DNA from: Marinicrinis sediminis
Lineage (GTDB): Bacteria; Bacillota; Bacilli; Paenibacillales; KCTC-33676
DNA length: 64,000 nucleotides
Assembly: GCF_042685085.1 (NCBI RefSeq)
Contig: NZ_JBHUMM010000007.1
Location: 177,846 to 241,845 of the forward strand
Direction: 5' to 3'
The notes below the pieces were generated by a model, which worked only from the letters and a program-made list of their open reading frames with translations, was not told where the DNA came from and made no database searches. Each line of letters begins with the position of its first letter. Within the stretch, counting starts at the first letter, position 1. Made by a program: the position numbers and the translations under genes. Positions 44,150 to 63,946 of the stretch are shown piece by piece.

Positions 44150-45040
44150 TCAAACAGTTGTTTTGAACCAAAGTAACAAATCAAATAATGAATACACCAT
44201 TGCTTGTACAGTAAATGAGGTTGGCTGATATGCTGGATTAAGGTATGGATTATGAGCTCCGTTATCACTTGACACTTTATATACGCATTCAGAAAACACT
44301 TTAATTACTCCAGAATAATATTCAGTTTGGGTAGGTTGATGATTATTTCTCCGGTGTTTGTTTCCACCTAAATGTTTGTGAGCATCCCAAAATTTCACGT
44401 CATTATTTGGCTTGAAACAACTGTCAGGAACTATACTTTTATCTAATTTATTTATTGTCTGGAGAATTGATTCTTGAACTCTACGGATTGTTACTAAATT
44501 ACTTTTTATTTGGGATAAATCATCACTATGCATATTTTTTATTAAGTTTACTAATTCATTCTCTATCGATATATCGACATGACCTCTCTCAAAAATCTGA
44601 AATACATTAAAATACTTATTTTTTATTTTAATATTCTCAAGTTCAAGACCCTTTTGAGTAATATAATTAAATAATGCTTCGATATCTCCCGGTATTTTTT
44701 TATATAGCTTCTCCTGAGGAAACCACGTTTTCACAGTCGAGAATCCTTCTGCATCGGCTGTTAAAATTGCTCGTGGAAGTTCTTTATATTTTTCATCAAG
44801 TAATGACAAAGCTATCGTTAGAAAATCTTCACCTTCTATCGGCTGATTTGGCTCTTTCAAACACTTTATATCAAGAACAATAAGCGTTAGCTTTGATGCA
44901 ATGGATGGTAATATTACTTCCATATCTCTAAAATTGGTTTTGTGTACTATATCAATATTATGGGGGCGGGCGGATCTCTTTAGTTCTTCTGCAAATCCTA
45001 TTTTATCATCTACTAATAACACATAATTTTTAGAGGACAT
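44150..45040 (-). CDS. Response-regulator receiver (REC) domain protein with an uncharacterised ~170-aa C-terminal domain
   Basis: 296 aa. REC signature residues: VLLVDD, phospho-acceptor-like LIVLDI, AILTADA (Thr), KLYKK (Lys). No recognisable HTH. Its start abuts the stop of the upstream kinase-like gene (45040/45041). Confidence 0.55.
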   Translation of the reverse strand: MSSKNYVLLVDDKIGFAEELKRSARPHNIDIVHKTNFRDMEVILPSIASKLTLIVLDIKCLKEPNQPIEGEDFLTIALSLLDEKYKELPRAILTADAEGFSTVKTWFPQEKLYKKIPGDIEALFNYITQKGLELENIKIKNKYFNVFQIFERGHVDISIENELVNLIKNMHSDDLSQIKSNLVTIRRVQESILQTINKLDKSIVPDSCFKPNNDVKFWDAHKHLGGNKHRRNNHQPTQTEYYSGVIKVFSECVYKVSSDNGAHNPYLNPAYQPTSFTVQAMVYSLFDLLLWFKTTV

Positions 45041-47686: not shown

Positions 47687-47762
47687 TACTTAACCTCCAA
47701 TCTTTTATATATTTAGTAATAGAGGCTAGTTTGTAACATTTCGAAACAAACTAGCCTATAAT

Positions 47763-50700
47763 TTAGTTATGGTTAGATATTAATCCAGTCACATTATTTA
47801 AATTCTCGATTGATAAAAAAGGTACTTGCCCAAATATTAACCCACTTTCCCCTTGAAGCCTTGCAGCCAAATGTCCCTTTCCGAGTAGCTTCTCCGCACC
47901 TTTTTCCCCAAGGGAAATCTCAGAGGTTCCTACGCTCTCAACCCGCAGGATTAGTCGATTACCTAAGTTATCCCTCAATTGGACCGGTAAAACATTTGCA
48001 TCTGGCCGTTGAGCTGCAAAGATCAAATGAATTCCTGCCGCACGTGCCTTTACCCCGAGCCGCTGTACGATGGAAGAAACAGCACTCTTGTATTCATCGA
48101 CAAGCATCCATTCAGCGAATTCATCGTGTATTAAAAATATTAGGGGAAGCTTCTCAGCATCAGCCACCTTAGAATTATAATCCTTTAAGTTGTTTACTTT
48201 GAACTCTTTAAACTTAAGGTACCTATCGTTCATTTCACCGACAAGATCCTCTAGTATCTGGGTTGCTTTATTCTGGTCATCGATAATACCTTCAACAAGA
48301 TGTGGTATATCCTCAAGATGCATATAATCGACACCATATTTAGGGTCAATTAAGTAAATATGCGCCAGATTCTTGCTATTCGTTACGCAGATATCAAGTA
48401 TTAGATTTTGTAGTAAGACGGATTTTCCACTTCCGGTAGCACCCGCAATAAGTGTATGTGGAGCATGCTGAGCCCCGCCTTCGAACTCGCCACCTAAATT
48501 TAGATAGAGCAGTTCCCCATCGATTTCTTTGACACCGATAACAAAGCTCATGTTTAACCCAGATGCATTGTTTTGGACCTTCCTTACCTTCCATACATCT
48601 GCTAATGATATGCTCTGCCTATGCGGGCGTGCTAAGGAAACAATTATTTCTCCAGGCCGAGCCATGATGTTTATGACATCAAGAGCATGTGTCGTAAGAA
48701 GGATGGATCTCCTCTTATCGATATCATCAACTTTTAACTGGTCCGATCCCTTAAGCCTTATGACAACAGCATTAGGCGTCAATCGATGGCCAATTACTTT
48801 CGCCTGCAAGTTATAGCTAATCAAAGCCATTCTGAGTTTATTTACTATTTCACTAACCCACGATTGATCTTCACTGGTTTCTTCAGTACTTTGAGCATTC
48901 TGTAATATCCACGTTGCTAACTGAGCATTCGCCCAAGGAATTTCACCGCTCATTTTGACGATGGCTTCCATTCCCTCTGGGTCTACCGATTCTGTTGCTT
49001 TCCCCTTGTTCAAGGGATCAGCTCCCTCATTCTCTCCTTGAGTTTCATCTCTCACAAAGTTCAACTCAATTTGATCGTCATCGGAATTATTAGGGGTATT
49101 ACTTTGTCCCGTAGCAAGTCCATTATTGCTCGCAGCAACAAAATTAATTCTTGGAGCGGGTAATGTAGCATCGCTTAATTCCCATGGCTTACTATCATCA
49201 AGCTTCTCTCTGATTTCGATGATGGATTTTCCCTGATGATAGGCTAAGACTAATTCTCTCACAAGATCCCTAGTAAAAACTTCCTGATGAGAATTCTTAG
49301 CATTTGTAATAGGATTTCTTTCACTGTCTAAAGATGTATCGGGAAACGTTGATATAAATACATGGGAATATCCCTTAATTTCAATTGGAATTTCCCCTGC
49401 CCGAATCCCCTCTCGCAACTCTTCAACAGTGAACGGAGAATTCGGGGCTAATTCAATACCATCATTTAACATATCACTAAATCTAGATAGCCATAGGTCA
49501 CGGTCAAGTCTACCAGGATCGCCAAAAAGTGCATTATGCATTCTCGAGACGGTATCGCGCAGCTGCTTTGAAGAATTCTTTCTCGCCTCGGACACACCTT
49601 TGGCATCAACATACTTAGCTTCAGAAACAAATACTTGTAGACGCGGCTTGTTTTCAACCATTTTGGGTGCAAGCGCTAATATATCTGCGATCTGCTCTTC
49701 CTTTTGTCCAAGCCAACTTGCGTAATCATCAAGGAAAAACCACCCTACAGCCTGTTCTGTTTCCATCTCGGATTGAAGGATCATCTTACTTAGTACAACA
49801 CCTATCAATTCACCAGCAAACACACCGCGTTTCGCAGCACGAAGAACGATGTCGCCTGATATTGCATTGGCATCCTCAATATACCGCTCCGTTAGCTGCA
49901 CTAATTCCGATTCAGATAATCCCAGACCTAAAGCATTCAACCTTCTTTTGACGAGGACATGTAACAAATTTAATTGAGATTTAGACGAAACAACAACGTT
50001 TGAGCCATGGGACTTATTGTGTTGGTACTTTATCACCTTTACCCCAAGGTTCCTAAGTTGTCTACGTTCTAACAATTCATCATAGTTGACTACCCACTCG
50101 CCGAGCTTGTGTGCCTCATCAAAAATGGCCTTCACTTTGTCATTCTGGAACGAAATTTGTCTTGCTGGTAAATAAAAAGCACCTGGGTTAACGTCTTTCC
50201 CCTTAACAACTGAATAAACGGACGTTAAGTAAGCCCAACCCACAGAAGGTTGACTTGGGCATGTCAAGTACACAGTAGATTTAAGTTCGTCCTTCGCCGT
50301 CGATCTTCTTTTAGCCCACCGCGGAGGATAATGGTTAAGCAATTCTGGCATCTGCCTCACTTGAACCTCATCCCATTCAAGATTGGCTTGCCTCGAGATG
50401 ACATCTTGTAAAAATACAATATCAGCTAGTTTTCCCTCTTTGGGGTCAGTTACAGTAGCCTCATGCGCCATCACTCCTACTCGAAGGCGTGCCATAAAAT
50501 CACGGGTGACCTCACTCGCAACAAAGGAGTCGGCGTCGCTATCTGCACTCTCTATCATCTTCATATATAATTCATTCAACTTATTCGTATCACGATGCCT
50601 TAGAATCACCTGACAGCGAATTTCATCTTCAATTTCATGCATTGCTGCTAGCGAGTTTACAATTGTCTCCGGAAGTCTAGTGGAATCACAGTTGTACAAA

Positions 50701-53105
50701 ACAAGGCTTAAGTTCGTTTTTTCATGAGGTTGAAGATCCAAATAACGTTCTACCAGACTGAGAAGTTTACTACTTGCTTCTTTCGGGTCTTCATTCGTCT
50801 GCACTTCTTCTTCAGTACGTACCGGACTTTCCATTAAGGTGTAATCATTCTTAGCATCTGTAATTGAAAGAAGCACCGGTTCAAGCCCCTTATACCCTAT
50901 AGCAACTTCTGGATAGTATGGGCTTACTATTTCTTCTTTGAGATCCGTAAAGAACAAACGCTGATCGCCAAAATCAATTTGGTCCGATGTTAATAGATAG
51001 TTTATTAAACCAATGACTTGTCTCGCCTTAACTACCTTTGCCGCCATTCGCATGGGGTGCCAAGGAGTCACAATAGTCATGGGTTTATTCTTTTCTCCAT
51101 CTACCCTGACATTCCCGATATCCATAACAGGCTGGGCAATCTGGACTCTATTCATATCGCCCAAGGCATGCTCTTGGAGAACTCGTAAAAACTTATCGTA
51201 CAGCTCGCTTTGTTCAATCATTGAATCTGAACTGATTCCATCTATTAGCCAATCATTGATAGATTGTTTATATTTAGTTGAAAAATTAGCCCATGCTTCT
51301 TTTAGAGTTTCATAGTCGTTCTGAGTTAGTCTTGCATCCTCAAGCAACTTCTTCAGATTATTTAAGACTGTTTTCTGTAAATCAGTGGTTTTTGCATAGA
51401 CACCGACTAGAGACCCTCTATCTTGTCCGAATACTGCTTGGATTGTACCGACATCGCTCAATGATAATCCCTGTAGCTTACCTTTCTTACTAACAGGATT
51501 TTGTGAAACACTGGAGTAAGAGAAAGGGTTATCAGCAAGTCTCCTTAAATCATCATGAAGTTCTAGTCCAATCTCATTAGGATTACCTTGCCATACCAGT
51601 TTCACTTCATTTTTTTGCTTTGACCCCTGTAAATCAAGGTAACTAAGCTCGATATAGAATGCGATTTGAATGGCCGCTTTGGCCGTTGATGTATTCTTTT
51701 TGAAGCCTTTCTTCTGTCTAGATTCTAATACTAACTGATCGTATTTAAACAAATGGTAAGTTTCCCAGTTTACTTGCCAATTGGTTAACTTCTCAAGCCC
51801 CCTGTAAGCATTACAGAAAGCTAGCCCCACATCTTCATTTATATCCAACCAAGCTTTTTTACTAGTGGTCTTCTGAGTGCGAATCCTAAGAGTCTTCTTT
51901 CCAATGAAACTATCACATTGGGCAAATAGACGCTCTGTTGCCTCTAATAAACCAACCAAAAAGTCTGTGCATTCAATTGCCTTACCATAAACAAAACGAT
52001 CCCACTCTGCTTTAAGAGCCTTCTCTGTCTCTAGATTGTGACGGTGCTTGTCGTAAAATTCTTTATCTTCTTCCGTGGCTTCCTTTGCTTTCTTCTTTTT
52101 AAAGAGTTCATTTAAATTATCAAGATAGATAATTTCCTCATCCATTAGAGTATCTGGAAACTCGTCATCAAATAACTGCCTAGTTTTTTCTGCTAGGTTT
52201 ATTTTCATTGGCTTCAATTCAAAAAATAGAAGGTTGACTTTATCTGTTTCCCATTCTAGTTCTGAAAGATTATCCGAAGCCGTGGACCAACTCACATTGG
52301 ATTCAATGAACAATTCCATGATTGGCTGAACAGAAGGATCAATTTGACTTTTCACTTTATCGTAAGAATCCCGAATTTCATTGTTTTCAATGATTTGACG
52401 ATTCGGATGCTGCTTATATAGATAACAAGCACGTTTATTATATGCATCTGTAAAAAACTTCTTCCATTTGCTTGCATGGCCCAAAGCATTCTCTGGGATT
52501 CCATCAAAAAAATAAGAATCACGTGGAATGCGAAGTGCTGGTAGCGCCCAGCCAAGTGCTCTAACAACCGGAATACCATTCTCTGCAATTGTTTCACGCA
52601 CTTTAACAGTAAATTCACTGAACTCTTCAAGGCTGCATTCATTTGCCTCTTGCAAACCTTTTAACGCTTGCTGCCAATGTCTTTTTTGATCATCACTTAG
52701 AGGAAGATCACTACTAGCCACTTGAACCCATATATCAGGTTGACTTTTCAGATCCGCTGCACCAACCCTTGCGATATCTCTTAACGATTGTCCTTGATCA
52801 TCATTCGTGTTCGCCAGTAAGATAGCGGGCTTATCACAAGAAGCATTCCTCCAATATGTTGTCTTTTCATCAGTAACCATATCAGAAGATAGCCCGCCTC
52901 CCTCAACTAATTTCCGAGGAACCTTAATGACCATTGTGGAAACTAACGTCGTATCTTGGCTTATCGTTTTACATATATAAGTGACCTGATCCCCAGTAAG
53001 ACGATCCAATAAAAAACGGGCAATCCCCTCCTCAGACTGGCTATTCTGTAATTGCCGACGAAGATATTCAGTTGCTACCCTTCCTATTAACTCTAGTTGA
53101 TTCAT
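47763..53105 (-). CDS. Giant (~1780 aa) protein with C-terminal FtsK/HerA-like P-loop ATPase; DndH/DptH-like by size and position
   Basis: The track ORF starts at 53153. The start at 53105 (MNQLELIGR...) gives an ATGA overlap with the upstream gene. The C-terminal FtsK-like Walker A is LIAGATGSGKSVLLQNLILDIC, with Walker B LIFLIHDEFAE. The ~1300-aa N-terminal region has no recognisable motifs. Confidence 0.65.
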   Translation of the reverse strand: MNQLELIGRVATEYLRRQLQNSQSEEGIARFLLDRLTGDQVTYICKTISQDTTLVSTMVIKVPRKLVEGGGLSSDMVTDEKTTYWRNASCDKPAILLANTNDDQGQSLRDIARVGAADLKSQPDIWVQVASSDLPLSDDQKRHWQQALKGLQEANECSLEEFSEFTVKVRETIAENGIPVVRALGWALPALRIPRDSYFFDGIPENALGHASKWKKFFTDAYNKRACYLYKQHPNRQIIENNEIRDSYDKVKSQIDPSVQPIMELFIESNVSWSTASDNLSELEWETDKVNLLFFELKPMKINLAEKTRQLFDDEFPDTLMDEEIIYLDNLNELFKKKKAKEATEEDKEFYDKHRHNLETEKALKAEWDRFVYGKAIECTDFLVGLLEATERLFAQCDSFIGKKTLRIRTQKTTSKKAWLDINEDVGLAFCNAYRGLEKLTNWQVNWETYHLFKYDQLVLESRQKKGFKKNTSTAKAAIQIAFYIELSYLDLQGSKQKNEVKLVWQGNPNEIGLELHDDLRRLADNPFSYSSVSQNPVSKKGKLQGLSLSDVGTIQAVFGQDRGSLVGVYAKTTDLQKTVLNNLKKLLEDARLTQNDYETLKEAWANFSTKYKQSINDWLIDGISSDSMIEQSELYDKFLRVLQEHALGDMNRVQIAQPVMDIGNVRVDGEKNKPMTIVTPWHPMRMAAKVVKARQVIGLINYLLTSDQIDFGDQRLFFTDLKEEIVSPYYPEVAIGYKGLEPVLLSITDAKNDYTLMESPVRTEEEVQTNEDPKEASSKLLSLVERYLDLQPHEKTNLSLVLYNCDSTRLPETIVNSLAAMHEIEDEIRCQVILRHRDTNKLNELYMKMIESADSDADSFVASEVTRDFMARLRVGVMAHEATVTDPKEGKLADIVFLQDVISRQANLEWDEVQVRQMPELLNHYPPRWAKRRSTAKDELKSTVYLTCPSQPSVGWAYLTSVYSVVKGKDVNPGAFYLPARQISFQNDKVKAIFDEAHKLGEWVVNYDELLERRQLRNLGVKVIKYQHNKSHGSNVVVSSKSQLNLLHVLVKRRLNALGLGLSESELVQLTERYIEDANAISGDIVLRAAKRGVFAGELIGVVLSKMILQSEMETEQAVGWFFLDDYASWLGQKEEQIADILALAPKMVENKPRLQVFVSEAKYVDAKGVSEARKNSSKQLRDTVSRMHNALFGDPGRLDRDLWLSRFSDMLNDGIELAPNSPFTVEELREGIRAGEIPIEIKGYSHVFISTFPDTSLDSERNPITNAKNSHQEVFTRDLVRELVLAYHQGKSIIEIREKLDDSKPWELSDATLPAPRINFVAASNNGLATGQSNTPNNSDDDQIELNFVRDETQGENEGADPLNKGKATESVDPEGMEAIVKMSGEIPWANAQLATWILQNAQSTEETSEDQSWVSEIVNKLRMALISYNLQAKVIGHRLTPNAVVIRLKGSDQLKVDDIDKRRSILLTTHALDVINIMARPGEIIVSLARPHRQSISLADVWKVRKVQNNASGLNMSFVIGVKEIDGELLYLNLGGEFEGGAQHAPHTLIAGATGSGKSVLLQNLILDICVTNSKNLAHIYLIDPKYGVDYMHLEDIPHLVEGIIDDQNKATQILEDLVGEMNDRYLKFKEFKVNNLKDYNSKVADAEKLPLIFLIHDEFAEWMLVDEYKSAVSSIVQRLGVKARAAGIHLIFAAQRPDANVLPVQLRDNLGNRLILRVESVGTSEISLGEKGAEKLLGKGHLAARLQGESGLIFGQVPFLSIENLNNVTGLISNHN

Positions 53106-54646
53106 GATAAAGTTTCCTCCTGAATCCCAAAGGGATTTTCTACATATGCACATGCATCAGATAATCTACGTAGTAACCCCATACTTGCCAATCTTTGCTC
53201 AAGGCGCCTTGCATTATCTGAGAATGCTTCTAAATCTGCTCTTCCTGCCTCCGTCAATTCTAGAGCCTGTTTATCTCCTATAATAAAGCCGTATTTCTCA
53301 TATAGTTTGTCTAAGAAGTCTTGGAATTCCATTCTTTCCGGAACAACGCACAATACTAAAGATTTCAAAAGCATGTCTTGAGGAGCATAGCGAAGTCTAC
53401 GAGCGCCTCTTCTTGACGAAAGGCCAATTTCCTTTCCCCAAACACCGTGAAACTTATCTACGTGCTGCTTATGTCTATTCATTGCTGCATTAACAAACTT
53501 ATTAATTAAATCATCCGGTGAATTTGCTGATTCTGCTTCACTCTCTTTGTTATCTCTTGGCCAAGCATATTCATGTTGTAGTAATGCTATTGCCTCATGT
53601 ATGTCCGTAACTTGTTTCCATGCCTCAGTGTTAACAACCTGTCTAATATATGCCTCTACTGCTCTCCGAGACATATTGTTGTGCTCAATAAAAGATCCAG
53701 AAGAAAGATCCCTGATAATTGTCTTCTTTGGAGAAACAATTTCTAATATAAAGGTTAATTTATTCGTATCACCTAAAATGAACTTTGCTCGATTTAAACT
53801 GTACATGAGCAAATGAAGTCCGGTCATGTTCACTAGATGCGGGATGACATCGTAATTCGGAATATTACTTTTTAACAATCGCAACCAATCATCTGCAAGC
53901 AGTTTGTAGTCATTCAACTTTTGGTAAGGCAAATAAACACCTGTTCGAATAGGGGATGAGCTTAGAGCGTCTTTCGGTTCTAGTGCTGCAACTAAACGAT
54001 TAAACTTATTCAATGGATTTAAAACACTCTTCTGAAGACTTGAGATTATCTGACTTCCTTTGCCGCTTCTAGTCAACATTAAATATAACAATTCACCTGT
54101 TCTACCAAAAAACCTTCGGTCATTAGTAAAGCCATTATCTTTCACTTTAAGGTCTTCATACAAACAGTCCGGACCGTATGGAAAAATAAATTGTGAACTC
54201 CAACGTTTATTATTCTCCCCCTCTATTGTCGTTTCTCGAAGAAACTGAACTACTGACGCAAAATCAACAAAATTCGCAAATCGCCCCTCTAAATAGTTGA
54301 AGTCTGCATTGATGATACCCGCTTGTCCCTTGCCCATAACTTCGTACCACTGCAGCCAAGCTTCTTTATCATCGTATCTATACTTACTTGATATAAGTGT
54401 TAATTGTGGGTTGTTAAATAAGATGTTTCTTAGATAAAGTCTTGACTTGGGTGAATAGGCCAGTTTATTAGGTTCCGTTTCACTAAATGCCCTGCCTTCT
54501 TCAAATTCAGACTGAAGAACATTTAAAAATTCCATAAAACAAAGCCATGGTGTTTGCTCATCATACAACCTGTGCCCCCAAATAGCCTCATCAACCCACA
54601 TGTCTGCGTCAATCTTTGTCGGACGCGGAAGTCTTTCATTATTCAT
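53102..54646 (-). CDS. Hypothetical protein, DndG/DptG-like by position
   Basis: The ATG at 54646 (MNNERLPRP...) has a perfect GGAGGT RBS and an 8-nt overlap with the upstream gene. 514 aa, no obvious catalytic motif. Confidence 0.5.
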   Translation of the reverse strand: MNNERLPRPTKIDADMWVDEAIWGHRLYDEQTPWLCFMEFLNVLQSEFEEGRAFSETEPNKLAYSPKSRLYLRNILFNNPQLTLISSKYRYDDKEAWLQWYEVMGKGQAGIINADFNYLEGRFANFVDFASVVQFLRETTIEGENNKRWSSQFIFPYGPDCLYEDLKVKDNGFTNDRRFFGRTGELLYLMLTRSGKGSQIISSLQKSVLNPLNKFNRLVAALEPKDALSSSPIRTGVYLPYQKLNDYKLLADDWLRLLKSNIPNYDVIPHLVNMTGLHLLMYSLNRAKFILGDTNKLTFILEIVSPKKTIIRDLSSGSFIEHNNMSRRAVEAYIRQVVNTEAWKQVTDIHEAIALLQHEYAWPRDNKESEAESANSPDDLINKFVNAAMNRHKQHVDKFHGVWGKEIGLSSRRGARRLRYAPQDMLLKSLVLCVVPERMEFQDFLDKLYEKYGFIIGDKQALELTEAGRADLEAFSDNARRLEQRLASMGLLRRLSDACAYVENPFGIQEETLS

Positions 54647-56477
54647 CGTAGTTAACCTCCACGATTCTGTCGTCAATTAGACCATCTTGATTAAGACGAA
54701 TGATTCTAAAGGATAAATCACCTTCATCATCCGGATCTTCTTCATCTATTCTACGGCGTTTCTCTAGTTGTTTAAGGAGTTTGCTTTTAAAACCCAAGAT
54801 ATCTTCGTAACATTCCCTAGAAAAACTCCCCGGTAACGCACCCTCGGCTACCCGCGAAAGAAATTCATAGCGAACTAATTGTAGTGGCAATTCAACTGTA
54901 GTTACTGAAGTTGACAGTTTCACTTCAATTACAAGCTTGTCGTTTGCATTCATTCGTATTTGCATGCTTTCACCACGCTTTTTCGGTACAGAAATACTCT
55001 CCTCAAAAATTCTACTAACTTTAGCCTGAGAGTGACTTCCAGACGTAGCCAAGATTAATTCAGCGTTGTTCTTTGCTAGAAGTCCCGTAAAAATGCGGTT
55101 TAATCCTTGGGCAATACGCGAAGTAATTTGAGTGGCTACTTTACCATCTTTAGCAATTCTGTAAACGTTAGATAAAAATTCTCCAGCATATTGGAATGTT
55201 GTAAGATGCCAAAATTTAAGCTCATCCTCTTTTTCCCTAGGGATTACGAAAAACAGCCTTTGTCTTTGGGATCGAAGAGATTCTAAAAAGTTTTCACCAC
55301 TATCCATTAAACCCTCTAAGTATTCTTTTTGATTTGCACGAAAATTCTGATCAGCACCGTAGTATGTATCACTTAGCACAAGCTCTTCGTACAAAGGACG
55401 AAGCTCAGGGTCATCCTCACCAAAAATTAGAACGTTATCGATCGTATTGCTTGTCTCGTAACCTATTCCAAATTTACCAAGTGCAGCGAATACATCAGTA
55501 GACTCACGTCGCCTTTCCGTGAGGTTCTCACCCAAAACATTTCGGTAAATACTTGCGAAGAATGTTTTATTCTCCTCAGCTAATTTGGTAGCATCAGAAC
55601 AGGACATAAGTCGATCTTTAGCTTCTGGATGGCCAAGTAGCATATTTGATACTAATAGAAGTAATTGCCTTATTGGAAGGTGAAGACCATTTAATTCACA
55701 CAACTCCAAAAGATCAGTGACTCTTGATCGAATCAGTTGTCCATCTTTATTCCCTTCAAGACGATTTCGGTTCTCCCATATAGGACATATCTTGCCCGTT
55801 TGATCATTTTCTCTCAGAGAGCATTGATTACAATCATTCCACCCTGGATGCTGCAATACAACATCCACAATCTGAGGAAATAGTCTAGCTGCACTTATTT
55901 GACTTAAATTATATAATCTAAGATTGAATCCGCTCTTTTCTTTAATCTCAGTAACCAACAAATCTTCAATGCACTGTTTAACTAAAACAGTCTGTGAGTC
56001 AGTACCAATGTTCTTCCATGCCTCAATCAGCTGCCCGTCGTTTGCTGCAATTAAAAATACATTGTTATCATTTGGAGTAAGGACCGAGTTAACGAACTTA
56101 CTTAAAATGGCCCTCTCCTCATCCCTCAGCTCACTTAAATCTTTAATAACATATAGTTTCTTAGAATTGGGCAAATCCAATTCCTTTACCTTATCATCAC
56201 TCTGCCATACCTGTAGCGAACCGTTTAATGCTAACCAAACTTCTCTACAGTTATATGTCTTACCGTCCCCAGCCGTTCCCGTCAGTATTACAGATTTAGG
56301 ACTAGGAGATTTAAAATTTTCAAGTAGTTCCTCTAAATAAACCGAATCGACAATTATGGGTTGGATATTTTTCCGCTTTATGATTCTATGAATTGCTTCA
56401 TCATACATGTTATCGTTACGAGGAATTGGTCCATACTGTCGTAGAAAACTAATCCATTGCGATTGAACTGTAGTCAT
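54639..56477 (-). CDS. P-loop NTPase, DndF/DptF-like by position
   Basis: 612 aa. Walker A VILTGTAGDGKT. Walker-B-like LYVIKDLSE. CNQCSLRENDQTGKICP is a possible metal-binding cluster. Confidence 0.5.
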   Translation of the reverse strand: MTTVQSQWISFLRQYGPIPRNDNMYDEAIHRIIKRKNIQPIIVDSVYLEELLENFKSPSPKSVILTGTAGDGKTYNCREVWLALNGSLQVWQSDDKVKELDLPNSKKLYVIKDLSELRDEERAILSKFVNSVLTPNDNNVFLIAANDGQLIEAWKNIGTDSQTVLVKQCIEDLLVTEIKEKSGFNLRLYNLSQISAARLFPQIVDVVLQHPGWNDCNQCSLRENDQTGKICPIWENRNRLEGNKDGQLIRSRVTDLLELCELNGLHLPIRQLLLLVSNMLLGHPEAKDRLMSCSDATKLAEENKTFFASIYRNVLGENLTERRRESTDVFAALGKFGIGYETSNTIDNVLIFGEDDPELRPLYEELVLSDTYYGADQNFRANQKEYLEGLMDSGENFLESLRSQRQRLFFVIPREKEDELKFWHLTTFQYAGEFLSNVYRIAKDGKVATQITSRIAQGLNRIFTGLLAKNNAELILATSGSHSQAKVSRIFEESISVPKKRGESMQIRMNANDKLVIEVKLSTSVTTVELPLQLVRYEFLSRVAEGALPGSFSRECYEDILGFKSKLLKQLEKRRRIDEEDPDDEGDLSFRIIRLNQDGLIDDRIVEVNYDE

Positions 56478-56571
56478 TATGTACTACCACCTTTTCAGGA
56501 AATGGTCCCTCTGATTCATTCGACATCTTCCAACTATTTTCCTGTTTATTATCAATTTCAACATTTTATTG

Positions 56572-57471
56572 TTAATCAACATTAAGGAAACTATCACTAT
56601 TATTCGACAAATTAAGAATTAAGTGTGTGTATTTACTCATTACTAATTCATTATAAGCTACAGTATAAATTCTTGGGTCCGGAATACTGCACTCTACAAT
56701 ATGGTAATGGATCCCGCGGCACGAAGTTCTTATTTTTATGTATACAGGAACTATTTCAATGTTCTTTGGGACACTACTTGCAATCCCTAATACAGGATAC
56801 AGCAGCTTATGCTTAGCCAATGACTTATGACTAGTATCGCTTTTTGCTTCTAGAACAAATAACGTCTCCTTATTATTCCGTTTTTCTATAAACATAGCAT
56901 CTATTTCGACTTGACCTCTGTTGTGAATAAACACATCACTTATCGAACTATGTGGCCTAAATTCAAAGGTGTATGTCGAGTTACAACTTGCTGGTGGGAA
57001 TATCGGTTTTATATGATCTATACCAAGAGCATAACTTATTAAACCGGACGAGAATCCTAAATTAACATAAGACTTCTCAGTTAAAGATGGCAAAATAGAA
57101 AAGATCTTTAATTGCTCAACATTAACTGCAGGGACATACTCCGTTCCTACGGAATTAAAAATCATATCATCTATTAAGAAGAAATCATCGAGTTTATCCT
57201 GGACCTTTACTAATGCAAATTGAGTTCCCGAACCACCTTTCGTTTGCCCTAATCTCATTACCATTGCAGAATTACTTTTGATAGATTGATGTAATCGTTC
57301 ATACGAATCAATAGATATTGCGGCGGCCGCACCCATCTTGGGATATCCGTTACTTTTTAAGTAATCTATGAATGAAATTGGTCCAAAGGTAGCAACTGGC
57401 TTGTCCTTTATTGTGCTAAGGGCTGCTTCAAACACCTCACTGATTCCTTCCTGCTTGTCATTTTTCCTCAT
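56572..57471 (-). CDS. Hypothetical protein with a possible PD-(D/E)xK nuclease motif
   Basis: 299 aa. VEIDAMFIEKRNNKETLFVLEAKSD gives D...ExK spacing compatible with a restriction-endonuclease-like fold. Weak evidence. Confidence 0.4.
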   Translation of the reverse strand: MRKNDKQEGISEVFEAALSTIKDKPVATFGPISFIDYLKSNGYPKMGAAAAISIDSYERLHQSIKSNSAMVMRLGQTKGGSGTQFALVKVQDKLDDFFLIDDMIFNSVGTEYVPAVNVEQLKIFSILPSLTEKSYVNLGFSSGLISYALGIDHIKPIFPPASCNSTYTFEFRPHSSISDVFIHNRGQVEIDAMFIEKRNNKETLFVLEAKSDTSHKSLAKHKLLYPVLGIASSVPKNIEIVPVYIKIRTSCRGIHYHIVECSIPDPRIYTVAYNELVMSKYTHLILNLSNNSDSFLNVD

Positions 57472-57550
57472 GATTCCCCCTACTTTCTTACAAATATCTT
57501 AACAAAAACGCAAAATCGCCGGAATATCTCCGGCGAAAATGAAAGTTATT

Positions 57551-58426
57551 TTATGAAAATGAACACACACAAGGAATATCTGCATCTGCTTTGAATAAAA
57601 ACTTTTCAAAACCCTCCGCTTCCATCACTTGGCGAAACTGTTTCATCGTATAGGACCCACCGTTCTTTTTCAGAATCGAAACATCCTTTTGAAGGCTAGT
57701 CCTGAATCTCTCTTCCATCTCTTCTTGTTCACGATAACGTTCTGGCCATATTGCATATAGTAGAGCATAATGCTGGTAACCTCCACGCACACACCTTCCC
57801 GCACAGTTTGCGTGGGAAAATCCTTTAATCCCATTCCTTAAAGCAATCTGGGCATTTTCATTTCCTTCATCCGCTAGCTGTTCAGCAATATTATACATTC
57901 GAGGCAATTCAATACCCCATTCATCACGTATGATTCCCTTGGCGTCCAGATCCTCCCTGAACAAATCGATCAGTGGAAACCGAGTCTCAATTGTTTCTAA
58001 TGGAAAATGAGCATAAAAGTCCTTTAAGTTGTCAGCCCGATGCTTCTCATGAGGACCAATCCCAAAATACAAAATAGGCTCTAGGTTTCTCTCATTTCTT
58101 AATTCTTCTTCCAAAAAGATAATGGTTTGTCTCACTTTCAGCTCTTCCGAGCACTTGGCCAAACGTGCATTTCCCAGAAATCGCTCATCGTAAAACACTT
58201 CTTCAGGAGTTCTTCCATCAAGTCTTTCTGTAATTTCCAAACCAATATGATTTGAAACCTCCTCCATAAACCGGTAATTATCTTCATCTTCCCATAAAGT
58301 GTTTGTAAAAAACAAAATGCAGTTATCTTTCCCATACGTTTGCACCATATGGTAAGCAACATAAGCACTTCCAGCTCCACCGCTAAACATTGCTACATGT
58401 ACAACCTTTTTATCTTGGGTGCTCAT
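57551..58426 (-). CDS. PAPS-reductase-family PP-loop ATP pyrophosphatase (DndC/SspD/BrxP-like)
   Basis: 291 aa. PP-loop HVAMFSGGAGSAYVAY near the N-terminus. Confidence 0.7.
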   Translation of the reverse strand: MSTQDKKVVHVAMFSGGAGSAYVAYHMVQTYGKDNCILFFTNTLWEDEDNYRFMEEVSNHIGLEITERLDGRTPEEVFYDERFLGNARLAKCSEELKVRQTIIFLEEELRNERNLEPILYFGIGPHEKHRADNLKDFYAHFPLETIETRFPLIDLFREDLDAKGIIRDEWGIELPRMYNIAEQLADEGNENAQIALRNGIKGFSHANCAGRCVRGGYQHYALLYAIWPERYREQEEMEERFRTSLQKDVSILKKNGGSYTMKQFRQVMEAEGFEKFLFKADADIPCVCSFS

Positions 58427-58430
58427 CTAA

Positions 58431-61400
58431 TCACTCCGCTTTTATTACGTAATTTTCAAATAACTGATAGATAAGGTACTCGAGTTCTTGCCGAGGTACA
58501 TTCTTACCTGCCGCATTGATCATTCTTTCTAAATTTGAATAGACCGTCGCCGACTTAACAGACAGATCGACCTTATTAATCAATTTCCTGCTATTGTTCA
58601 GTTGAACTGAAACCATATTCAAGTTGTTTTGTTCAATTTCCTGTTCAGTAAGCCTTAGCTCCTCTAGATCGTGATTTAGTTGCGAAAAGAATAAATCATA
58701 AGTGGTATCAGACCAATCCTCCACTCTGACCCCTACGTATTCTTTAGCAAATTGCTCTATCCATAAATCTCCTTTCTCACTAGATAGCGAATTTTTAATT
58801 CTTTCCGACAGCTTATTAACCGAATAAGACCCGTTGGCCCGCTGTTCTTCAACCCAATTGTTTAAGTTTTTGTAATTGCTGAGTTCCATAACCTGTAACA
58901 ATTTCTCTGCTAGTTCGTTCTTTAGCAATACAGTGAAATTCTCTGCGTATTGCTTAATACCTATCAACTTATCTATATTATTTTGGTAGAGTCTTATTAG
59001 CTGTGCGACCGATTGTTGAGGATCTACCTCTGACCTTTTTATGAGATCCCTAAACTCGCCAAATTCCTTATCTACGTTAATAGAAGTTTGCGCAATCCTA
59101 GGAAGCGACCGCAGCCACTTCAATAAAGTGCCGCAAATAAATATTAGTCTAGATTGGTTGTTCAAACGCGTTTCAAGTGAATCAACAAAGCACTTCTCAA
59201 TACTATTAAAAAATTCAACATAGCTATCACTAATGTGCTCATAAGCGTACTGATAGTAATCCGCTCCAGTCTCCACTATGATTTCGAAAAGCGTAGATCC
59301 ATCTATGCCTGGAACAAACATACCATTGCGGTACAGCATAAACTCGTTCCAACGATCCCTAAGCAATGCAACAAATAGTATAGGGATCAACGGCTTCCTA
59401 ATTCCAAACGGCGGAGCCGAGCACAGCTCTACTAAATCTTTGAAATTACCCTTCGGGTTACTCTCTAAAACCTCGATTAATCTTGCTCTAAGAGCAGCAA
59501 ATGACTCGTTTAATATGTTTGAGTAGTCTAAATTATTGACATTCACATCAAGCCTGCCATTGTTTTTGAAGATAGTAGCAAACAATGCATAATCAGGACC
59601 ATTTCCTTCAATGCCAAACTGCTGTGTGCTTGGCTCCTCAATCATTTTATCAATAAGCTTAATCGCCGCATTTCTTTGCACTCTCGAAACCGTATTCCTA
59701 TTGAAGGAGTCATTCAAGATCACAGGTGTGCACTTAAACAGTTCATAGCATTTATCAGATAATTTTTCTGATACCTCAAGTTCGGAGTGCATCGTCATTT
59801 TATTGCCATCAATATACCAGGTCTTCTGATCTTCATATGAGATTATTTCGGATAGATACTGAGAGATTCTGTATCTAGTCTCATTGAATAAGACCTCTAG
59901 TTCTTCCTTAATTCCCTTATCTTCCGCAAGTAGAGCCTTGTTTCTTCTTAGTGAGTCCAAACCTAAATAATTATAAACATCTGGTATAATTTCCAGTAGA
60001 GGTTTGGAGTGTAAGAAAAATAGCTTTCTATCATATTCCTTACTCAAACTTCGTAAAATGAGATCAAGTGAATCGTATGACTCTAAATTTTCTGCTAAAA
60101 CATAATAGACTGTTAGATCAGACTGTTTATTCTCCTGAATCATTTTCCGATCCATTATTTCTTTTCCATACACAATTCTCACTTCAGAGAATCTTGTCAT
60201 TCCCTTGTCATCATTGTACCGTTCAGGAAAATAAAATTTCTTAACGAGATTATTGTGTAGAACTTCTATTTCCTTAGCTTGATCTGCTTTTATTACATGC
60301 TTTTCATGTTCTAGGCGTTCATGCATATCGACTGAACTGCCTGCAAATAACTCCCAGTAATCATTCACTCTATTAAACCTAATTACTTTATGTTTGCTGA
60401 GTACAGGTAAAATATCTGAGAGTTCATCTTCTGTAATTTGTGTTGCAAACCGTAAGAAATCTGAATTAAGCTTCTGTTCGTTTTGTACCGAGCACAAGTT
60501 CCAAAGAGTTATGAACTTCACTAGGTTCGTTGCCGACTGGTTATTTAGAAGTTCCTCAGGAAAACGGGCCATTGCTTTTTTATATAAAAGGATATGTTCG
60601 GATACATCATCATTCCCAAAATCATTCGAGTAGGAAAAGAAAAAATCAAACAGCTGGTAGCCTAAATAATATTCGTTACATTTGCTTATATGATTTAACA
60701 ACCCACCCGTTTCTTGACTTTCTAGAAAAGTAAATAACGTTCTCTCATTTTGTCCAAACACTCGGGTTAGATGTGGCAGAAGGAAAATCGAAACCGGATG
60801 AAGCGGGTACATACCTCGAACTACCAACTCATCTCGTTCCGTCTGATTGATACTCGGAAAGAGCGGGTACTTTCTCAGCATTTTACGTGTTGTAGAGAAA
60901 GCTACCTCACTAATAATTGGCTTCTGGTCAATATTCTCTGTAAGAATTAACTCCGAGATTCTGAGAAAGGTCGCTTGATCACTTTTCACCAAGTATTGAT
61001 TAAACCTCTTCTCAATACGTTGAAATTCCCTAGCTATCTCTTCATTCGAAGCATTAAAATAGGAACGCAAACTTCTATGGGTAATTAACAATAAGTGTAT
61101 TGAACTCATTCTGTTTGCAAGTTCCGCAAGATCTTGCATATCTTGCATAGCCTCATTAAATTCATTCGCATTCAGGCCCTGCAAAAACCTAGCAAATTCA
61201 TCATACACGATAAATATCCCCAAGTTGTTATCTTGTAGGATTGCTGCCAGATATTCCATCTGTGATAAAAAACTATAGTCATAATCAATATCAAACGATG
61301 CACCAGCGGTCATAAGGGGGTAGATTTCCGAAAAATACTTTATCTCGGTTTCATTCTGCTTTTTAATTTCTTCAACCCACCGCTTCAGCTCTTTTCCATC

Positions 61401-61907
61401 TTTATCTAATTGGACACAAAACTTGTCATACGTATCTTGGAAATCTTTCTCCCATAATTTTATGGAACTAATTATTTTTGCTGCCAATCCGGGTAATACA
61501 ACATCAATGCCATTTTCTTTAAGTATCTTTACAACACTAGCTATAATTGAGTGTCTAAACCTGCCTGCGTTACCACTTAACAAAATTGGCAGGTAAGGTA
61601 TCGGTAGTTCACTTGCATTTTTTATCATTCCTGGAATGTAATCATCGACTTGTTCAAACTTTTCAGCTAACGTATGAACTTCAGAAAGAGTACTCATTTT
61701 TGATACAATACTCCCAATTATATTGGCCAAAAACGATTTCCCAGTACCATATGGACCTATAATAATATGAGATCGGTTAGACCCTACAGCAAATCCATCC
61801 ATTATTCCTTTCATAGCTTCAGCGTGAGAAGGCGTAGGAATATAGCTTTTAAACAACTCTGCATTTCCAATATCTAATTTGATGTTAACACTTGATTTGA
61901 ATGCCAT
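58431..61907 (-). CDS. Large P-loop ATPase (SspC/BrxC-like candidate)
   Basis: 1158 aa. Walker A IIIGPYGTGKSFLANII at the N-terminus. Walker-B-like GIFIVYDEFARF. Long helical C-terminal region. Confidence 0.65.
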   Translation of the reverse strand: MAFKSSVNIKLDIGNAELFKSYIPTPSHAEAMKGIMDGFAVGSNRSHIIIGPYGTGKSFLANIIGSIVSKMSTLSEVHTLAEKFEQVDDYIPGMIKNASELPIPYLPILLSGNAGRFRHSIIASVVKILKENGIDVVLPGLAAKIISSIKLWEKDFQDTYDKFCVQLDKDGKELKRWVEEIKKQNETEIKYFSEIYPLMTAGASFDIDYDYSFLSQMEYLAAILQDNNLGIFIVYDEFARFLQGLNANEFNEAMQDMQDLAELANRMSSIHLLLITHRSLRSYFNASNEEIAREFQRIEKRFNQYLVKSDQATFLRISELILTENIDQKPIISEVAFSTTRKMLRKYPLFPSINQTERDELVVRGMYPLHPVSIFLLPHLTRVFGQNERTLFTFLESQETGGLLNHISKCNEYYLGYQLFDFFFSYSNDFGNDDVSEHILLYKKAMARFPEELLNNQSATNLVKFITLWNLCSVQNEQKLNSDFLRFATQITEDELSDILPVLSKHKVIRFNRVNDYWELFAGSSVDMHERLEHEKHVIKADQAKEIEVLHNNLVKKFYFPERYNDDKGMTRFSEVRIVYGKEIMDRKMIQENKQSDLTVYYVLAENLESYDSLDLILRSLSKEYDRKLFFLHSKPLLEIIPDVYNYLGLDSLRRNKALLAEDKGIKEELEVLFNETRYRISQYLSEIISYEDQKTWYIDGNKMTMHSELEVSEKLSDKCYELFKCTPVILNDSFNRNTVSRVQRNAAIKLIDKMIEEPSTQQFGIEGNGPDYALFATIFKNNGRLDVNVNNLDYSNILNESFAALRARLIEVLESNPKGNFKDLVELCSAPPFGIRKPLIPILFVALLRDRWNEFMLYRNGMFVPGIDGSTLFEIIVETGADYYQYAYEHISDSYVEFFNSIEKCFVDSLETRLNNQSRLIFICGTLLKWLRSLPRIAQTSINVDKEFGEFRDLIKRSEVDPQQSVAQLIRLYQNNIDKLIGIKQYAENFTVLLKNELAEKLLQVMELSNYKNLNNWVEEQRANGSYSVNKLSERIKNSLSSEKGDLWIEQFAKEYVGVRVEDWSDTTYDLFFSQLNHDLEELRLTEQEIEQNNLNMVSVQLNNSRKLINKVDLSVKSATVYSNLERMINAAGKNVPRQELEYLIYQLFENYVIKAE

Positions 61908-61909
61908 CT

Positions 61910-62797
61910 TTAGTAGGTCATCCTTTCAAAAAACTCGCCTTTTATATAATCAATAGATGAAACCATCGGCAATCTAATATAGTCTAAATTATTTGTTCTA
62001 ATATACTCAATCGGGTACTTGTCATGGGTCGTTAGAATATTTAAGGCTTCGACAACCTTATTTCGAGTTAAATTAAATATTCTTCCCCATAGATTTTCTG
62101 CATTCACAATCTCATCGACACCAATAAGTCGATCCTCTGATATCTGGTCATAATCGAGTAGAACGTAATAAAGAGCCGGGATACCTATCGTAGAGATTTT
62201 AGAAGCCACTTTTCTGATTGTGTCATCCCGTTCTCCCGAATGTTCACTTTTCATTAATGATAATCTTGAAAAAGGACAGAATAAAACGTCTTCCGGATCA
62301 TTCACATCAGGTACCTTCGTATAAAATTGAATCAAACAATCAATGTCTCTTTTGAGAGAATTCTTCGATACTGCTTTCGCTTCATTTTGGCTTACCCAAG
62401 TGATAAATGAATTGAATAAATCGCGTTTACCAACTATCGTTTCTCTATATTTATTAAAGTACCAATCGAAAACAGTCGAAAGATCATTCCCATTTCTTAC
62501 CAAATGGTAGTGAAGTATGGACAGTGATTCATTCCTTTGAAGGAGTCGATCACTCTCGAACAAAATATCTCCTATTTCAGATAACGCATGTACACGCTGA
62601 CCATCTTCTGTTCTTTCTTCAAGTACGTTGAAAGCAAGTAACCAATATTTTAAGGACTCAAGCATGTTTTTGCCCAAGCCAACTGTTTCAAAAGCATATT
62701 CATCAAAAAAGAATCTTTTATCTTGCTTTACTGCCCTTAACCCCTTACTAAACCATTTATCTCTTATATAAAAGCTTTGATGTCTAGCATAGGCCAT
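61910..62797 (-). CDS. DUF4007-like protein (SspB-like candidate, DNA-phosphorothioation-associated family)
   Basis: 295 aa. The N-terminus MAYARHQSFYIRDKWFSKGL matches the ARHE(S/T)F..R.GWL.KG opening recalled for DUF4007 proteins. It is tightly coupled (2-nt gap) to the large ATPase gene. Confidence 0.55.
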   Translation of the reverse strand: MAYARHQSFYIRDKWFSKGLRAVKQDKRFFFDEYAFETVGLGKNMLESLKYWLLAFNVLEERTEDGQRVHALSEIGDILFESDRLLQRNESLSILHYHLVRNGNDLSTVFDWYFNKYRETIVGKRDLFNSFITWVSQNEAKAVSKNSLKRDIDCLIQFYTKVPDVNDPEDVLFCPFSRLSLMKSEHSGERDDTIRKVASKISTIGIPALYYVLLDYDQISEDRLIGVDEIVNAENLWGRIFNLTRNKVVEALNILTTHDKYPIEYIRTNNLDYIRLPMVSSIDYIKGEFFERMTY

Positions 62798-62936
62798 ATA
62801 TAGATCTTCCTCTCTTGAAATGAAAAATTACTCCTGGAGAGATACCTCCAGCAGTAATTATACATCAGTGCGCCAAAAAAAAACACCCTATTATCGGAAC
62901 GCACGTTCCTATTATTTTAGTTCATTTCCTCTTAAG

Positions 62937-63598
62937 ATGCATTAGGATAAGATCGAATCTTTATTTAACTTGCCTGCGAAAGCTATCCTTGATGACTACC
63001 TTAGTGGTGGATTATGATGCCGTGCTCCTTCGCTCCGCTTCGTCCGCGCGGGACTGAACCCCTACCGTCCGTTTTTCGGACTCCCTATTGATTCCACTCC
63101 ATTCAACTTCTGTAGCAATAAAAAAGACACCCTTACGGGCGCCTTTTTTATTCCTATGGAGACGAGGGGAGTATCACAATCTTTATTTAATCTGCCTGCG
63201 GAAGTCTATCCTCGATGACTACTTTAGCGGTAGATTATGATGCCGTGCTCCTTCGCTCCGCTTCGTCCGCGCGGGACTGAACCCCAGGGTTCGCCTCCCT
63301 TCTTCACACCTTTACAAGACAAGAGCCCCGACCTATTAGGCCGGAGCTCTTGTCTTGTATGGAGGCGAGGGGAGTATCACAATCTTTATTTAATCTGCCT
63401 ACGGAAGTCTATCCTCGATGACTACCTTAGCGGTGGATTATGATGCCGTGCTCCTTCGCTCCGCTTCGTCCGCGCGGGACTGAACCCCTACCATCCGATT
63501 TTCGGACTCCCGATTGATTCCACTCCATTCAACTTCTGTAGCAATAAAAAAGACACCCTTACGGGCGCCTTTTTTATTCCTATGGAGGCGAGGGGAGT
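62937..63598. repeat. Three tandem ~200-230-bp modules, each a conserved ~110-bp element plus a terminator-containing spacer plus an 18-nt copy of the ssrA 3' end (att-core duplications)
   Basis: The core tatggag(a/g)cgaggggagt occurs at 63155-63172 (1 mismatch), 63358-63375 and 63581-63598. The last copy is the authentic 3' end of tmRNA. The conserved ~110-bp element (atcacaatctttatttaatctgcctgcggaagtctatcctcgatgactac...gggactgaacccc) occurs at 62941-63060 (diverged), 63173-63286 and 63376-63490. Spacers 1 and 3 are identical in layout, and spacer 2 differs. Confidence 0.8.
63546..63578 (-). terminator. ssrA rho-independent terminator (a duplicate copy lies at 63125-63153)
   Basis: The minus strand reads AAGGCGCCCGUAAGGGUGUCUUUUUUAUUGC immediately after the tmRNA 3' end. 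Confidence 0.7.
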
Positions 63599-63946
63599 CG
63601 AACCCCTGTCCGAAGATATCGCCACACCAGCTTCTACGGGTGTAGTGACTTGTGGGTGTTTCGCCTAAGCTGCTGCCAAGTCACCCACCACAGCCTAGAC
63701 TAGTCTGATTGTCTTCTTCCGTTAGCCCCAGACGGAGACTAAACGGCGTATCCCACTAAATGTGAGCCCCTGTCTCGGCACATGGGCGATGCAGAGGAGG
63801 AGCACGCTAGCAGGTTATTAAGCTGCTAAAGCGTAGTTAGTTTGTTGTTTGCCAGTTATTATTGGCTTTAGCGTTTTAGAGTGGACGCGTCCCCACTACC
63901 CGCTACTCATGCTCGAACTATCCCCGTCGAATCCATAAACGCCCCC
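63583..63946 (-). ncRNA. ssrA: tmRNA (SsrA), 364 nt
   Basis: On the minus strand the 5' end reads GGGGGCGUUUAUGGAUUCGACGGGGAUAG and the 3' end reads GGACAGGGGUUCGACUCCCCUCGCCUCCA (tRNA-like domain, discriminator A). The internal tag ORF GGC AAA CAA CAA ACU AAC UAC GCU UUA GCA GCU UAA UAA encodes (A)GKQQTNYALAA with a double stop. Confidence 0.85.

Follow-up and report, generated by a model that had tools for sequence, protein, structure and literature searches.

Small non-coding cassettes behind the tmRNA gene of Paenibacillaceae as candidate integrative units

The gene for transfer-messenger RNA (tmRNA), ssrA, of Marinicrinis sediminis is followed by a short array of repeats that carry copies of the gene's own 3' end. 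The array lies near one end of a stretch of 64,000 nucleotides (contig NZ_JBHUMM010000007.1, positions 177,846 to 241,845), called here the window and numbered from its first letter. They consist of a non-coding cassette, present in two complete copies and a third that is truncated at its 3' end. More than 70 copies of this cassette family were found in all, each directly downstream of a tmRNA gene or of the nrdR-linked tRNA-Ala(GGC) gene of a member of the Paenibacillaceae. I shall argue that such cassettes may be small integrative units, brought into the 3' ends of these two genes by an enzyme that they do not themselves encode.

The array behind ssrA

The window ends with ssrA on the minus strand, and the array is described downstream, in the sense of the gene. 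The tmRNA is intact and uninterrupted, with the tag peptide GKQQTNYALAA (ARAGORN, Rfam). The gene does not encode CCA, its CCTCCA running on into TA. Its final 18 nt, ACTCCCCTCGCCTCCATA, are called here the core, and the window contains three matches to them where 0.02 would be expected. Beginning at the gene, the features are as follows.

63583..63946, minus strand: tmRNA (ssrA) gene (ARAGORN; Rfam RF00023, 198.9 bits)
63581..63598, minus strand: core copy 1, the real tmRNA 3' end: T-loop A58 through the discriminator, then TA
63539..63582, minus strand: T1, hairpin terminator borne by the cassette and extended by an A/U-tract (-27.1 kcal/mol, z -5.2; inverted repeat I4)
63348..63534, minus strand: predicted folded domain of cassette 1, ending in core copy 2 (covariance-model match, 131.7 bits)
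63358..63375, minus strand: core copy 2, an exact match to ACTCCCCTCGCCTCCATA
63313..63359, minus strand: T2, a perfect palindrome of 21 bp, lacking a U-tract (-45.3 kcal/mol, z -10.8; inverted repeat I2)
63145..63323, minus strand: predicted folded domain of cassette 2, ending in core copy 3 (covariance-model match, 145.8 bits)
63155..63172, minus strand: core copy 3, with one mismatch, C to T at position 11
63113..63156, minus strand: T1', second copy of T1 (repeat finder, folding energy)
62923..63105, minus strand: predicted folded domain of cassette 3, 3'-truncated (covariance-model match, 90.6 bits; nhmmer match 62952-63066)

A conserved element adjoins every core copy, either before or after it, and within it an arm block of 53 nt is invariant, its three copies identical in all modules (0 expected). 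A repeat finder, with which alignment agrees, gives one repeat family of 131 nt in three copies and another of 195 nt in two, and successive cassettes start 203-223 bp apart. The terminators are of two kinds. Modules 1 and 3 have the T1 hairpin in common (about -27 kcal/mol, z about -5 to -6), and the stem of T2 in module 2 is prolonged into core 2 by the flanking pairs CGCCU/AGGUG. Similarity in cassette 3 stops after AAATAAAGATT at about 62952, five bases short of the expected position of a core. Its last bases and distal core have been lost at the junction with the neighboring Ssp island described below, and there is no fourth core in the window.

An earlier note on this DNA, made from the letters alone, had already pointed out the three tandem copies of the ssrA 3' end, as well as the terminator common to modules 1 and 3 and the different palindrome of module 2. 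All of this is confirmed. It had also described a conserved arm of about 110 bp and a core at the end of every module. The arm is indeed conserved but longer than supposed, since the covariance model matches exactly three times in the window, over lengths of 179-187 nt. A terminal core is found in modules 1 and 2 but not in module 3.

A cassette family: spread, plan and covarying helices

The relatives were collected in stages. A scan for ssrA 3' ends returned 120 loci, and BLAST on these placed arm-like sequence right behind ssrA in seven species of Paenibacillus and Cohnella, with a decayed remnant in an eighth locus. A gapped pattern taken from the BLAST-found copies added about 30 loci from metagenomes. 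A profile and then a covariance model gave 55 matches, three of them in the window, and a further 19 (11 + 8) came from loci fetched via homologues of SmpB and NrdR. Of the metagenomic copies, roughly half follow a tRNA-Ala(GGC) gene adjoining nrdR. The gene upstream of that tRNA was considered as smpB and this was rejected, for the gene encodes NrdR; at one such locus the protein is 100% identical to NrdR of Paenibacillus vulneris.

The family is restricted to these two alanine-type target genes. Every copy in the window and in about 190 loci lies behind tmRNA or tRNA-Ala, and no others were found elsewhere in the 64-kb window or in the fetched loci. The family is also specific to Paenibacillaceae: tmRNA loci from outside that group gave no covariance-model match. 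Searches further afield were negative. Exact words of 22-26 nt from the arm are absent from viral contigs and from contigs of a one-genome-per-species collection; the family diverges too fast, and the source species lies outside the collection. BLAST with tmRNA-type and tRNA-Ala-type cassettes found no match among phages and plasmids, and exact look-ups of the window's SspB and dehydrogenase proteins returned no record. I found no description of the cassettes in Rfam, in the phage, plasmid and viral collections, or in the literature searched.

The plan of the cassette, about 200 bp long, is constant: a copy of the gene's 3' end, a palindromic terminator and a conserved folded domain of about 150-180 nt. 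The gene copy runs from T-loop position 58 to the discriminator, usually lacking CCA. Cassette boundaries read ...GATTGTGAT followed directly by ACTCCCC..., and the core that follows the domain is, in nearly all the cases read, the 3' end of the local gene from A58. The tmRNA-type core is ACTCCCCTCGCCTCCA, and the two tRNA-Ala types are ATCCCCCTAGGCTCCA and ATCCCGCTAATCTCCA. The terminator is strong, and a complementary segment named IR-L (for example TGGTGGAGCC or TATGGA) commonly prolongs its stem to take in the spacer and the final bases of the core. The domain then opens with a small hairpin, P0 (GGGG-loop-CCCC), after which come GGGG and a linker of 4-6 nt, often TTCAG, together resembling half a T-arm. 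Helix P1 (CCGCGC / GCACGG) encloses a hairpin of variable length, P2. Helix P3, of 9-11 bp, surrounds a conserved region with at least one hairpin, P4. The 5' GGGG of the domain can pair with CCCC of the next core, forming a helix called PT, so that the PT and IR-L segments are both complementary to the core. A GGAGGCG upstream of the element was considered as the 5' strand of a tRNA acceptor, with possible mimicry towards alanyl-tRNA synthetase, and rejected: these bases belong to the P0 hairpin, and it is IR-L that is the true complement of the core and also pairs with the spacer after the upstream core.

In the window, cassette 1 has IR-L (AATGGAG) at 63523-63529, the small hairpin at 63493-63507, the 5' strand of PT (GGGG) at 63485-63488, P1 at 63472-63477/63446-63451, P2, and P3 at 63436-63444/63376-63384. 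Cassette 2 has P0 (GGAG..CCCT) at 63286-63298, GGGG of PT at 63282-63285, P1 at 63269-63274/63243-63248 and P3 at 63233-63241/63173-63181. Cassette 3 is without the 3' strand of P3. Elsewhere, distal or old copies have decayed (in loci L058 and L172 and in the second copy of L163). No open reading frame was found in the cassettes, small ones on either strand not being conserved.

Some copies depart from the plan. In five tRNA-Ala-type loci (L131, L137, L140, L156 and L160) an extra segment of about 35 nt (..CCCATGnnGGnTAGACGAGCTTGTGCGAG..) lies between P3 and the core. In L035 (880-1080, minus strand) a transposon-like end with four or five subterminal repeats of CGGCAAACTTTTGGTTTAAATGA sits inside the terminator hairpin of a cassette; L150 has one copy of the motif at the same junction (about 1090-1150), and in L167 (about 2130-2190) the left arm of the terminator is replaced by sequence without it. 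The repeats in L035 suggest a Tn7-like or Mu-like element that would target the sequence behind ssrA.

The case for folding comes from comparing copies. At the proposed pairs, 88.6-90.6% of cells are paired, compared with 30-50% after sliding the partners. Aligned with MAFFT, 44 distinct copies give 88.6% standard pairs as against 30-49% with the 3' partners slid by one to three columns, and a model-based alignment of 54 distinct copies, biased though it is towards the model, agrees. The covariation score is 0.31; slid partners give 0.09 or less, and none of 500 shuffles reaches 0.31. Both sides change in seven of the nine pairs of P3 (for example ATCATAATC/GATTGTGAT, ATTGGAATC/GATTCCAAT and TATTGAAATGT/ACATTTCAATA). 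One pair of P2 reads C-G in 19 copies and is reversed to G-C in another 19. Covariation with the core is seen for GGGG too, as in the L144 type, where GCGGG goes with CCCGC. G.U cells outnumber A.C cells, 90 to 48, when read on the gene-sense strand, and this mildly favors that strand. The domain is conserved in sequence as well, with 20 invariant columns and highly conserved unpaired stretches. The fold energy of a single copy is no better than that of shuffled sequence (z between -1.0 and +0.6), hence the structure is visible only by comparison across copies. Scanning the array regions with Rfam 15 gave only tmRNA and tRNA as significant (E below 1e-10), the arm matching nothing, and Intron_gpI had no match at E-values up to 10 in the window or up to 1 in a second Rfam scan.

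The arm that the earlier note took for an integration scar is thus a structured domain with covarying helices rather than a decaying att arm, and such helices argue against a conventional double-stranded arm site. The domain would fit either RNA or, as with integron attC or the attP of CTX phage, folded single-stranded DNA. An RNA would have to depend on read-through, since every copy is preceded by a strong terminator hairpin and there is no space for a promoter.

Array variation and how it might arise

Then there is the way in which arrays differ between closely related strains. The element is present at seven of 34 species-level Paenibacillaceae ssrA loci. Eight loci encode one and the same SmpB, P0004, which has about 83% identity to the query protein, and they bear 0, 0, 0, 1, 1, 2, 2 and 4 copies. 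Among strains of one species, GCA_007679495.1 has 4 copies, GCA_051966115.1 likewise bears the cassette, and GCA_900128845.1 has 0. Both of the cassette-free loci in this set with a single ssrA end in CCACCA; the third, L176, with a second ssrA in tandem, ends in CCATA, as do all those with cassettes. At NrdR loci of the P. vulneris type there are two kinds of cassette with different terminators, varying in number and order, and eight loci of a related species (P0133 NrdR) have none, the tRNA ending in CCACCA with a simple terminator. Gene-free cassettes are therefore polymorphic within species, in presence as well as in order. As for the loci whose tmRNA is most similar to that of the window, L013 has no cassette within the 227 nt available, and L172, whose tag is the same, has just one cassette, decayed and of another type. 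The earlier note had called for comparison with related ssrA loci, and it turns out that relatives do carry cassettes of the family but not the same triple repeat. This, with the range of 0 to 4 copies beside an identical SmpB, means that the array is not a fixed ancestral feature.

Two comparisons tell how cassettes change. L146 and L166 have 100% identity in the tRNA fragment and 93% in the downstream flank, yet only 53% in the cassette that lies between the cores: one cassette has been replaced by another, and the replacement is bounded exactly by the two cores. In L173 and L177 the 3' half of the cassette is common and the 5' half different, from which it follows that cassettes also recombine with one another. 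Locus L175 has three successive units, each made up of an ssrA 3' end or fragment, one or two cassettes, a CCACCA core and an island, with the cassettes always on the side of the island nearer the gene. They either entered the functional gene anew once each island had arrived, or came with islands that crossed over 50-85 nt upstream.

I propose that the cassettes are small non-autonomous integrative units that enter the T-loop/3' end of their target by means of an enzyme supplied in trans, and I would put the probability of this at roughly 0.58. The target would be ssrA or, in other genomes, the nrdR-linked tRNA-Ala(GGC). Entry would take place through conservative site-specific recombination within the core of 16-18 nt, performed by an enzyme encoded elsewhere. 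The gene would be kept intact, its former 3' end displaced distally. Repeated entry, along with exchange between cores, would build and reshuffle the arrays, and islands that cross over further upstream in the gene would then carry cassettes along. Recombination at the core, a recombinase acting in trans and a folded domain serving as the cis-acting part are what I infer. Conservative core recombination fits the direct repeats that bound each cassette, the preservation of the gene, and a pattern found in five arrays, where the CCA-bearing copy stands at the distal end and the TA-ending copy is proximal. That pattern should be regarded as only supportive. The layout is also what one would expect of site-specific integration into the 3' end of ssrA, as the earlier note held, and of the three options it offered, miniature integrative elements fit best. 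A degraded remnant of a large island does not, given the same gene-free minimal layout in more than 70 copies from many genomes.

Several considerations weigh against the proposal. Among the loci compared there is no pair of empty and filled sites with identical flanks on both sides, and no recombinase has been identified for the cassettes. An encoded CCA is also missing from many Paenibacillus ssrA genes that have no cassette, so the CCATA end is not diagnostic by itself. The changes in the arrays could be wholly the result of homologous or unequal exchange between cores plus hitch-hiking with islands, in which case a single ancient insertion per lineage would be all that is needed. Conservation of both sequence and structure would be no less natural in a functional RNA than in a site of recombination. 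Module 3 of the window has no distal core. Finally, a few placements are not what simple core-to-core integration predicts. In L128 (1-314) the element lies inside the T-loop of an otherwise normal tmRNA body, and in L156 (7054-7255) and the second copy of L163/L144 (L163:6054-6227) it lies in the T-loop of tRNA-Ala 3' fragments, in all cases without the usual upstream terminator and P0. These may be deletions between the T-arm of the gene and the GGGG-linker of the first cassette, or the element itself may have inserted.

The enzyme was sought in several places. No protein family recurs distal to the arrays and no recurrent recombinase is nearby. No copy seen has a gene or integrase between terminator and folded domain, that is, no autonomous form was met with, and searches of phages, plasmids, viral contigs and the fetched loci gave no autonomous relative either. 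The most conspicuous candidate was a large serine recombinase in L165 (3881-5638), whose gene ends 140 nt before a 32-nt ssrA 3' fragment, which in turn is followed by a cassette. It was rejected as the mobilizer: except for one weak match in L026, some 4.5 kb upstream of ssrA, its other matches are in cassette-free loci of Clostridia, and it is part of a separate integrative element that uses ssrA. A tyrosine integrase near the array in L174 was likewise assigned to another element. An open reading frame of 212 aa in L152, considered as the tail of a recombinase, has no recombinase domain and no similarity to the L165 enzyme. A retroelement-like scheme, with IR-L as primer-binding site and the cores as terminal repeats, was given up too, as most cores lack CCA and no reverse transcriptase is linked.

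What else might the cassettes be? They could be a host small RNA that arose from the 3' trailer of tmRNA or tRNA-Ala, with arrays made by tandem duplication and unequal crossing-over and no mobility at all. The strongly covarying helices, the G.U pairs that favor the gene-sense strand and the high conservation of unpaired stretches would all be at home in such an RNA, as would a domain that is always co-oriented with the RNA gene and directly downstream of it. It is harder to see why a resident RNA should be so patchy (seven of 34 species, 0-4 copies within one of them), why it should be replaced between near-identical flanks, or why it should occur at two unrelated loci with the core matching the local gene each time. 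The terminator before every copy and the lack of room for a promoter count against it as well, as do downstream genes that are unrelated from locus to locus. I consider this account unlikely. There are two others to which I would give a good deal less weight. The element of about 120 nt might be a T-loop insertion, something like an intron, between positions 57 and 58 of alanine-type T-arms, surviving only in non-functional partial copies of the gene. It is indeed flanked by what look like T-arm halves, GGGGTTC(A/G) to the left and A(C/T)(T/C)CCCC to the right, and it does interrupt the tmRNA body of L128 and the tRNA-Ala 3' fragments of L156 and the second copy of L163; moreover, group I introns are known at the tmRNA T-loop (PMC11915505). 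But P0 and IR-L, upstream and not derived from tRNA, are also conserved, the TTC(A/G) linker varies (GCGTC, TACGCT and others occur), GGGG covaries with the core as its pairing partner, the group I signature is absent, and no copies turn up outside these loci in the window or the fetched loci. Such an insertion seems to me quite improbable.

It is at least as hard to accept the modules as scars of integrase-bearing islands or prophages after deletion of their interiors, the arm being an ordinary attP arm. Direct repeats of a gene's 3' end are the classic signature of an integrase, to be sure, and ssrA is a busy site, with fragments of 50 nt and 85 nt in L175 besides the enzymes of L174 and L165. 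Interior deletions would scarcely have left the same minimal layout more than 70 times, with no copy retaining an integrase or any other gene between terminator and domain. Covarying helices would not be expected of an arm bound as a double strand by protein, and the phage, plasmid and viral-contig collections hold no match. I regard this as very improbable. A bolder possibility, tentative and on balance doubtful, keeps the mobility and gives the domain a larger part. The cassette would be a self-contained, protein-less mobile unit, directed to the T-loops of alanine-type tRNA-like genes by its own conserved folded domain, be that RNA or folded single-stranded DNA. GGGG and IR-L would pair with the core and rebuild the target duplex, and tmRNA and tRNA-Ala would act as an integron-like or guide-RNA-like platform, for a recombinase not yet linked to it.

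Beyond the array, the window has the following feature.

44150..62797, minus strand: low-GC cargo adjoining the array, encoding SspB, SspC, an SspD-like protein, DUF6997, SspF, SspG, SspH and a type I-like methyltransferase fused to HATPase

These genes make up a phosphorothioate (Ssp) defense island, with a GC content of 30-42% as against about 50% in its flanks. SspA, an integrase and terminal repeats are all absent, and there is no ssrA fragment at the distal end. The position of the island suggests a link to the cassettes, and by analogy with L153 and L175 the array would stand at the ssrA-proximal edge of an integrase-less defense island. The earlier note had correctly seen no recombinase in or next to the modules, as Pfam and PADLOC confirm, and had allowed that an integrase might lie at the distal boundary of the low-GC region. 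Neither program finds an integrase or recombinase domain in the island, and none turned up at that boundary inside the window. The weak core-like string near 43955 that it offered as the other end is at chance level, its local alignment score of 15 being equaled or exceeded in 108 of 159 control windows. Just beyond the distal edge are transposase fragments, of the IS256 family at 40954-41608 (minus strand) and IS3-like at about 43650-43900. A separate block of 33-36% GC at about 37.9-40.9 kb encodes three secreted or lipoprotein-like proteins.

Other loci have islands too. In L153 (960-6300) a 5-kb island without an integrase consists of one cassette, a 296-aa protein and a DEAD-box/ResIII helicase. 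Its distal bound is a decayed 3' half of tRNA-Ala that begins in the anticodon loop, a boundary which suggests that islands with an upstream crossover carry cassettes along with them. In L013 (1705-1769) and L176 (7343-7702) a second complete ssrA with a different tag lies 130-160 nt downstream of the resident one. The second gene is presumably island-borne; in L176 a Dnd island follows it.

Should the proposal prove true, a widespread family of small Paenibacillus cassettes, of which I found no description in the libraries or literature searched, has been remodeling the 3' ends of two essential RNA genes. Each cassette would add a further copy of the attachment sequence used by islands at ssrA, and cassettes would travel at the gene-proximal edge of defense islands, the Ssp island of the window included. 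There would then be an explanation for tandem ssrA fragments that lack an integrase, which island-finding tools treat as scars or noise. The cassettes would also be a tractable system in which to ask whether a folded domain directs site-specific insertion with an enzyme provided in trans. In any event, they add a new structured nucleic-acid family, as judged by covariation, with a covariance model ready for use.

Comparison with known systems

Islands and prophages integrate at the T-loop or 3' end of tRNA and tmRNA genes by means of tyrosine integrases, and are said to have been sorted into sublocation classes by Williams in 2002 and gathered in the Islander database. The cassettes resemble them in supplying a replacement 3' end, in leaving the displaced end as a direct repeat, which is present in the window and its relatives, and in forming tandem arrays at ssrA. 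They are unlike them in measuring about 200 bp with no integrase or any other gene, and in that the sequence adjacent to the core would be a covarying folded domain in place of arm-type sites for binding protein.

Integrons offer a second comparison. Their attC sites have a GTTRRRY core and R''/L''-L'/R' boxes and are conserved in structure rather than sequence. In attC, as in the attP of CTX phage, the two ends of the site pair, rebuilding a duplex copy of the core. Integron cassettes and clusters of attC sites lacking integron-integrases (CALIN) share several traits with the family described here: one-directional arrays of small cassettes split by a repeated core and shuffled between strains, a structured site of 60-150 nt at the boundary whose 5' and 3' ends can pair to rebuild the core duplex, and arrays with no integrase nearby. 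The differences are that here there is no GTTRRRY core, there are no R/L boxes, and the sequence of the domain is conserved; a tRNA or tmRNA gene, not attI, serves as platform, and most cassettes have no open reading frame.

The pdif modules of Acinetobacter plasmids and integrative mobile elements exploiting Xer (IMEX), such as CTX phage, use the XerCD of their host, and CTX has a folded single-stranded attP. They are small like the cassettes and similarly without a recombinase of their own, being moved by a site-specific recombinase of the host. The target here is not dif, however, and no 28-bp site of the XerC/XerD type is evident.

Cis-mobilizable elements (CIMEs) belong to the integrative and conjugative element (ICE) and integrative mobilizable element (IME) systems of streptococci (for example PMC5704250). 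CIMEs are bounded by att sites, lack recombination genes of their own, are presumed to be moved in trans and occur in tandem with other elements, all of which brings them close to the cassettes, with their att-like cores on both sides and no genes for recombination or transfer. CIMEs are kilobase-sized decay products of known ICEs or IMEs, whereas the cassettes have no known parent and their minimal form is conserved. Transposase-dependent miniature elements (MITE, PATE) are marked by dispersed copies with terminal repeats or hairpins and target-site features; the copies of the present family in the window and in about 190 loci are all behind tmRNA or tRNA-Ala. IS110-type elements with a bridge or seek RNA have a DEDD-type recombinase beside them and RNA loops matching target and donor; no recombinase adjoins the cassettes, whose PT and IR-L segments are complementary to the core. 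The group I introns of tmRNA, found mostly in Bacillota, share the location in the T-loop, and the smallest intron-bearing form of tmRNA comes to 545 bp in total (PMC11915505). The element described here is of about 120 nt, has no group I core, and in the window occurs only in the downstream partial copies. The cassettes would belong among the site-specific integrative or cassette systems, with an appreciable chance that the mechanism by which they move is genuinely new.

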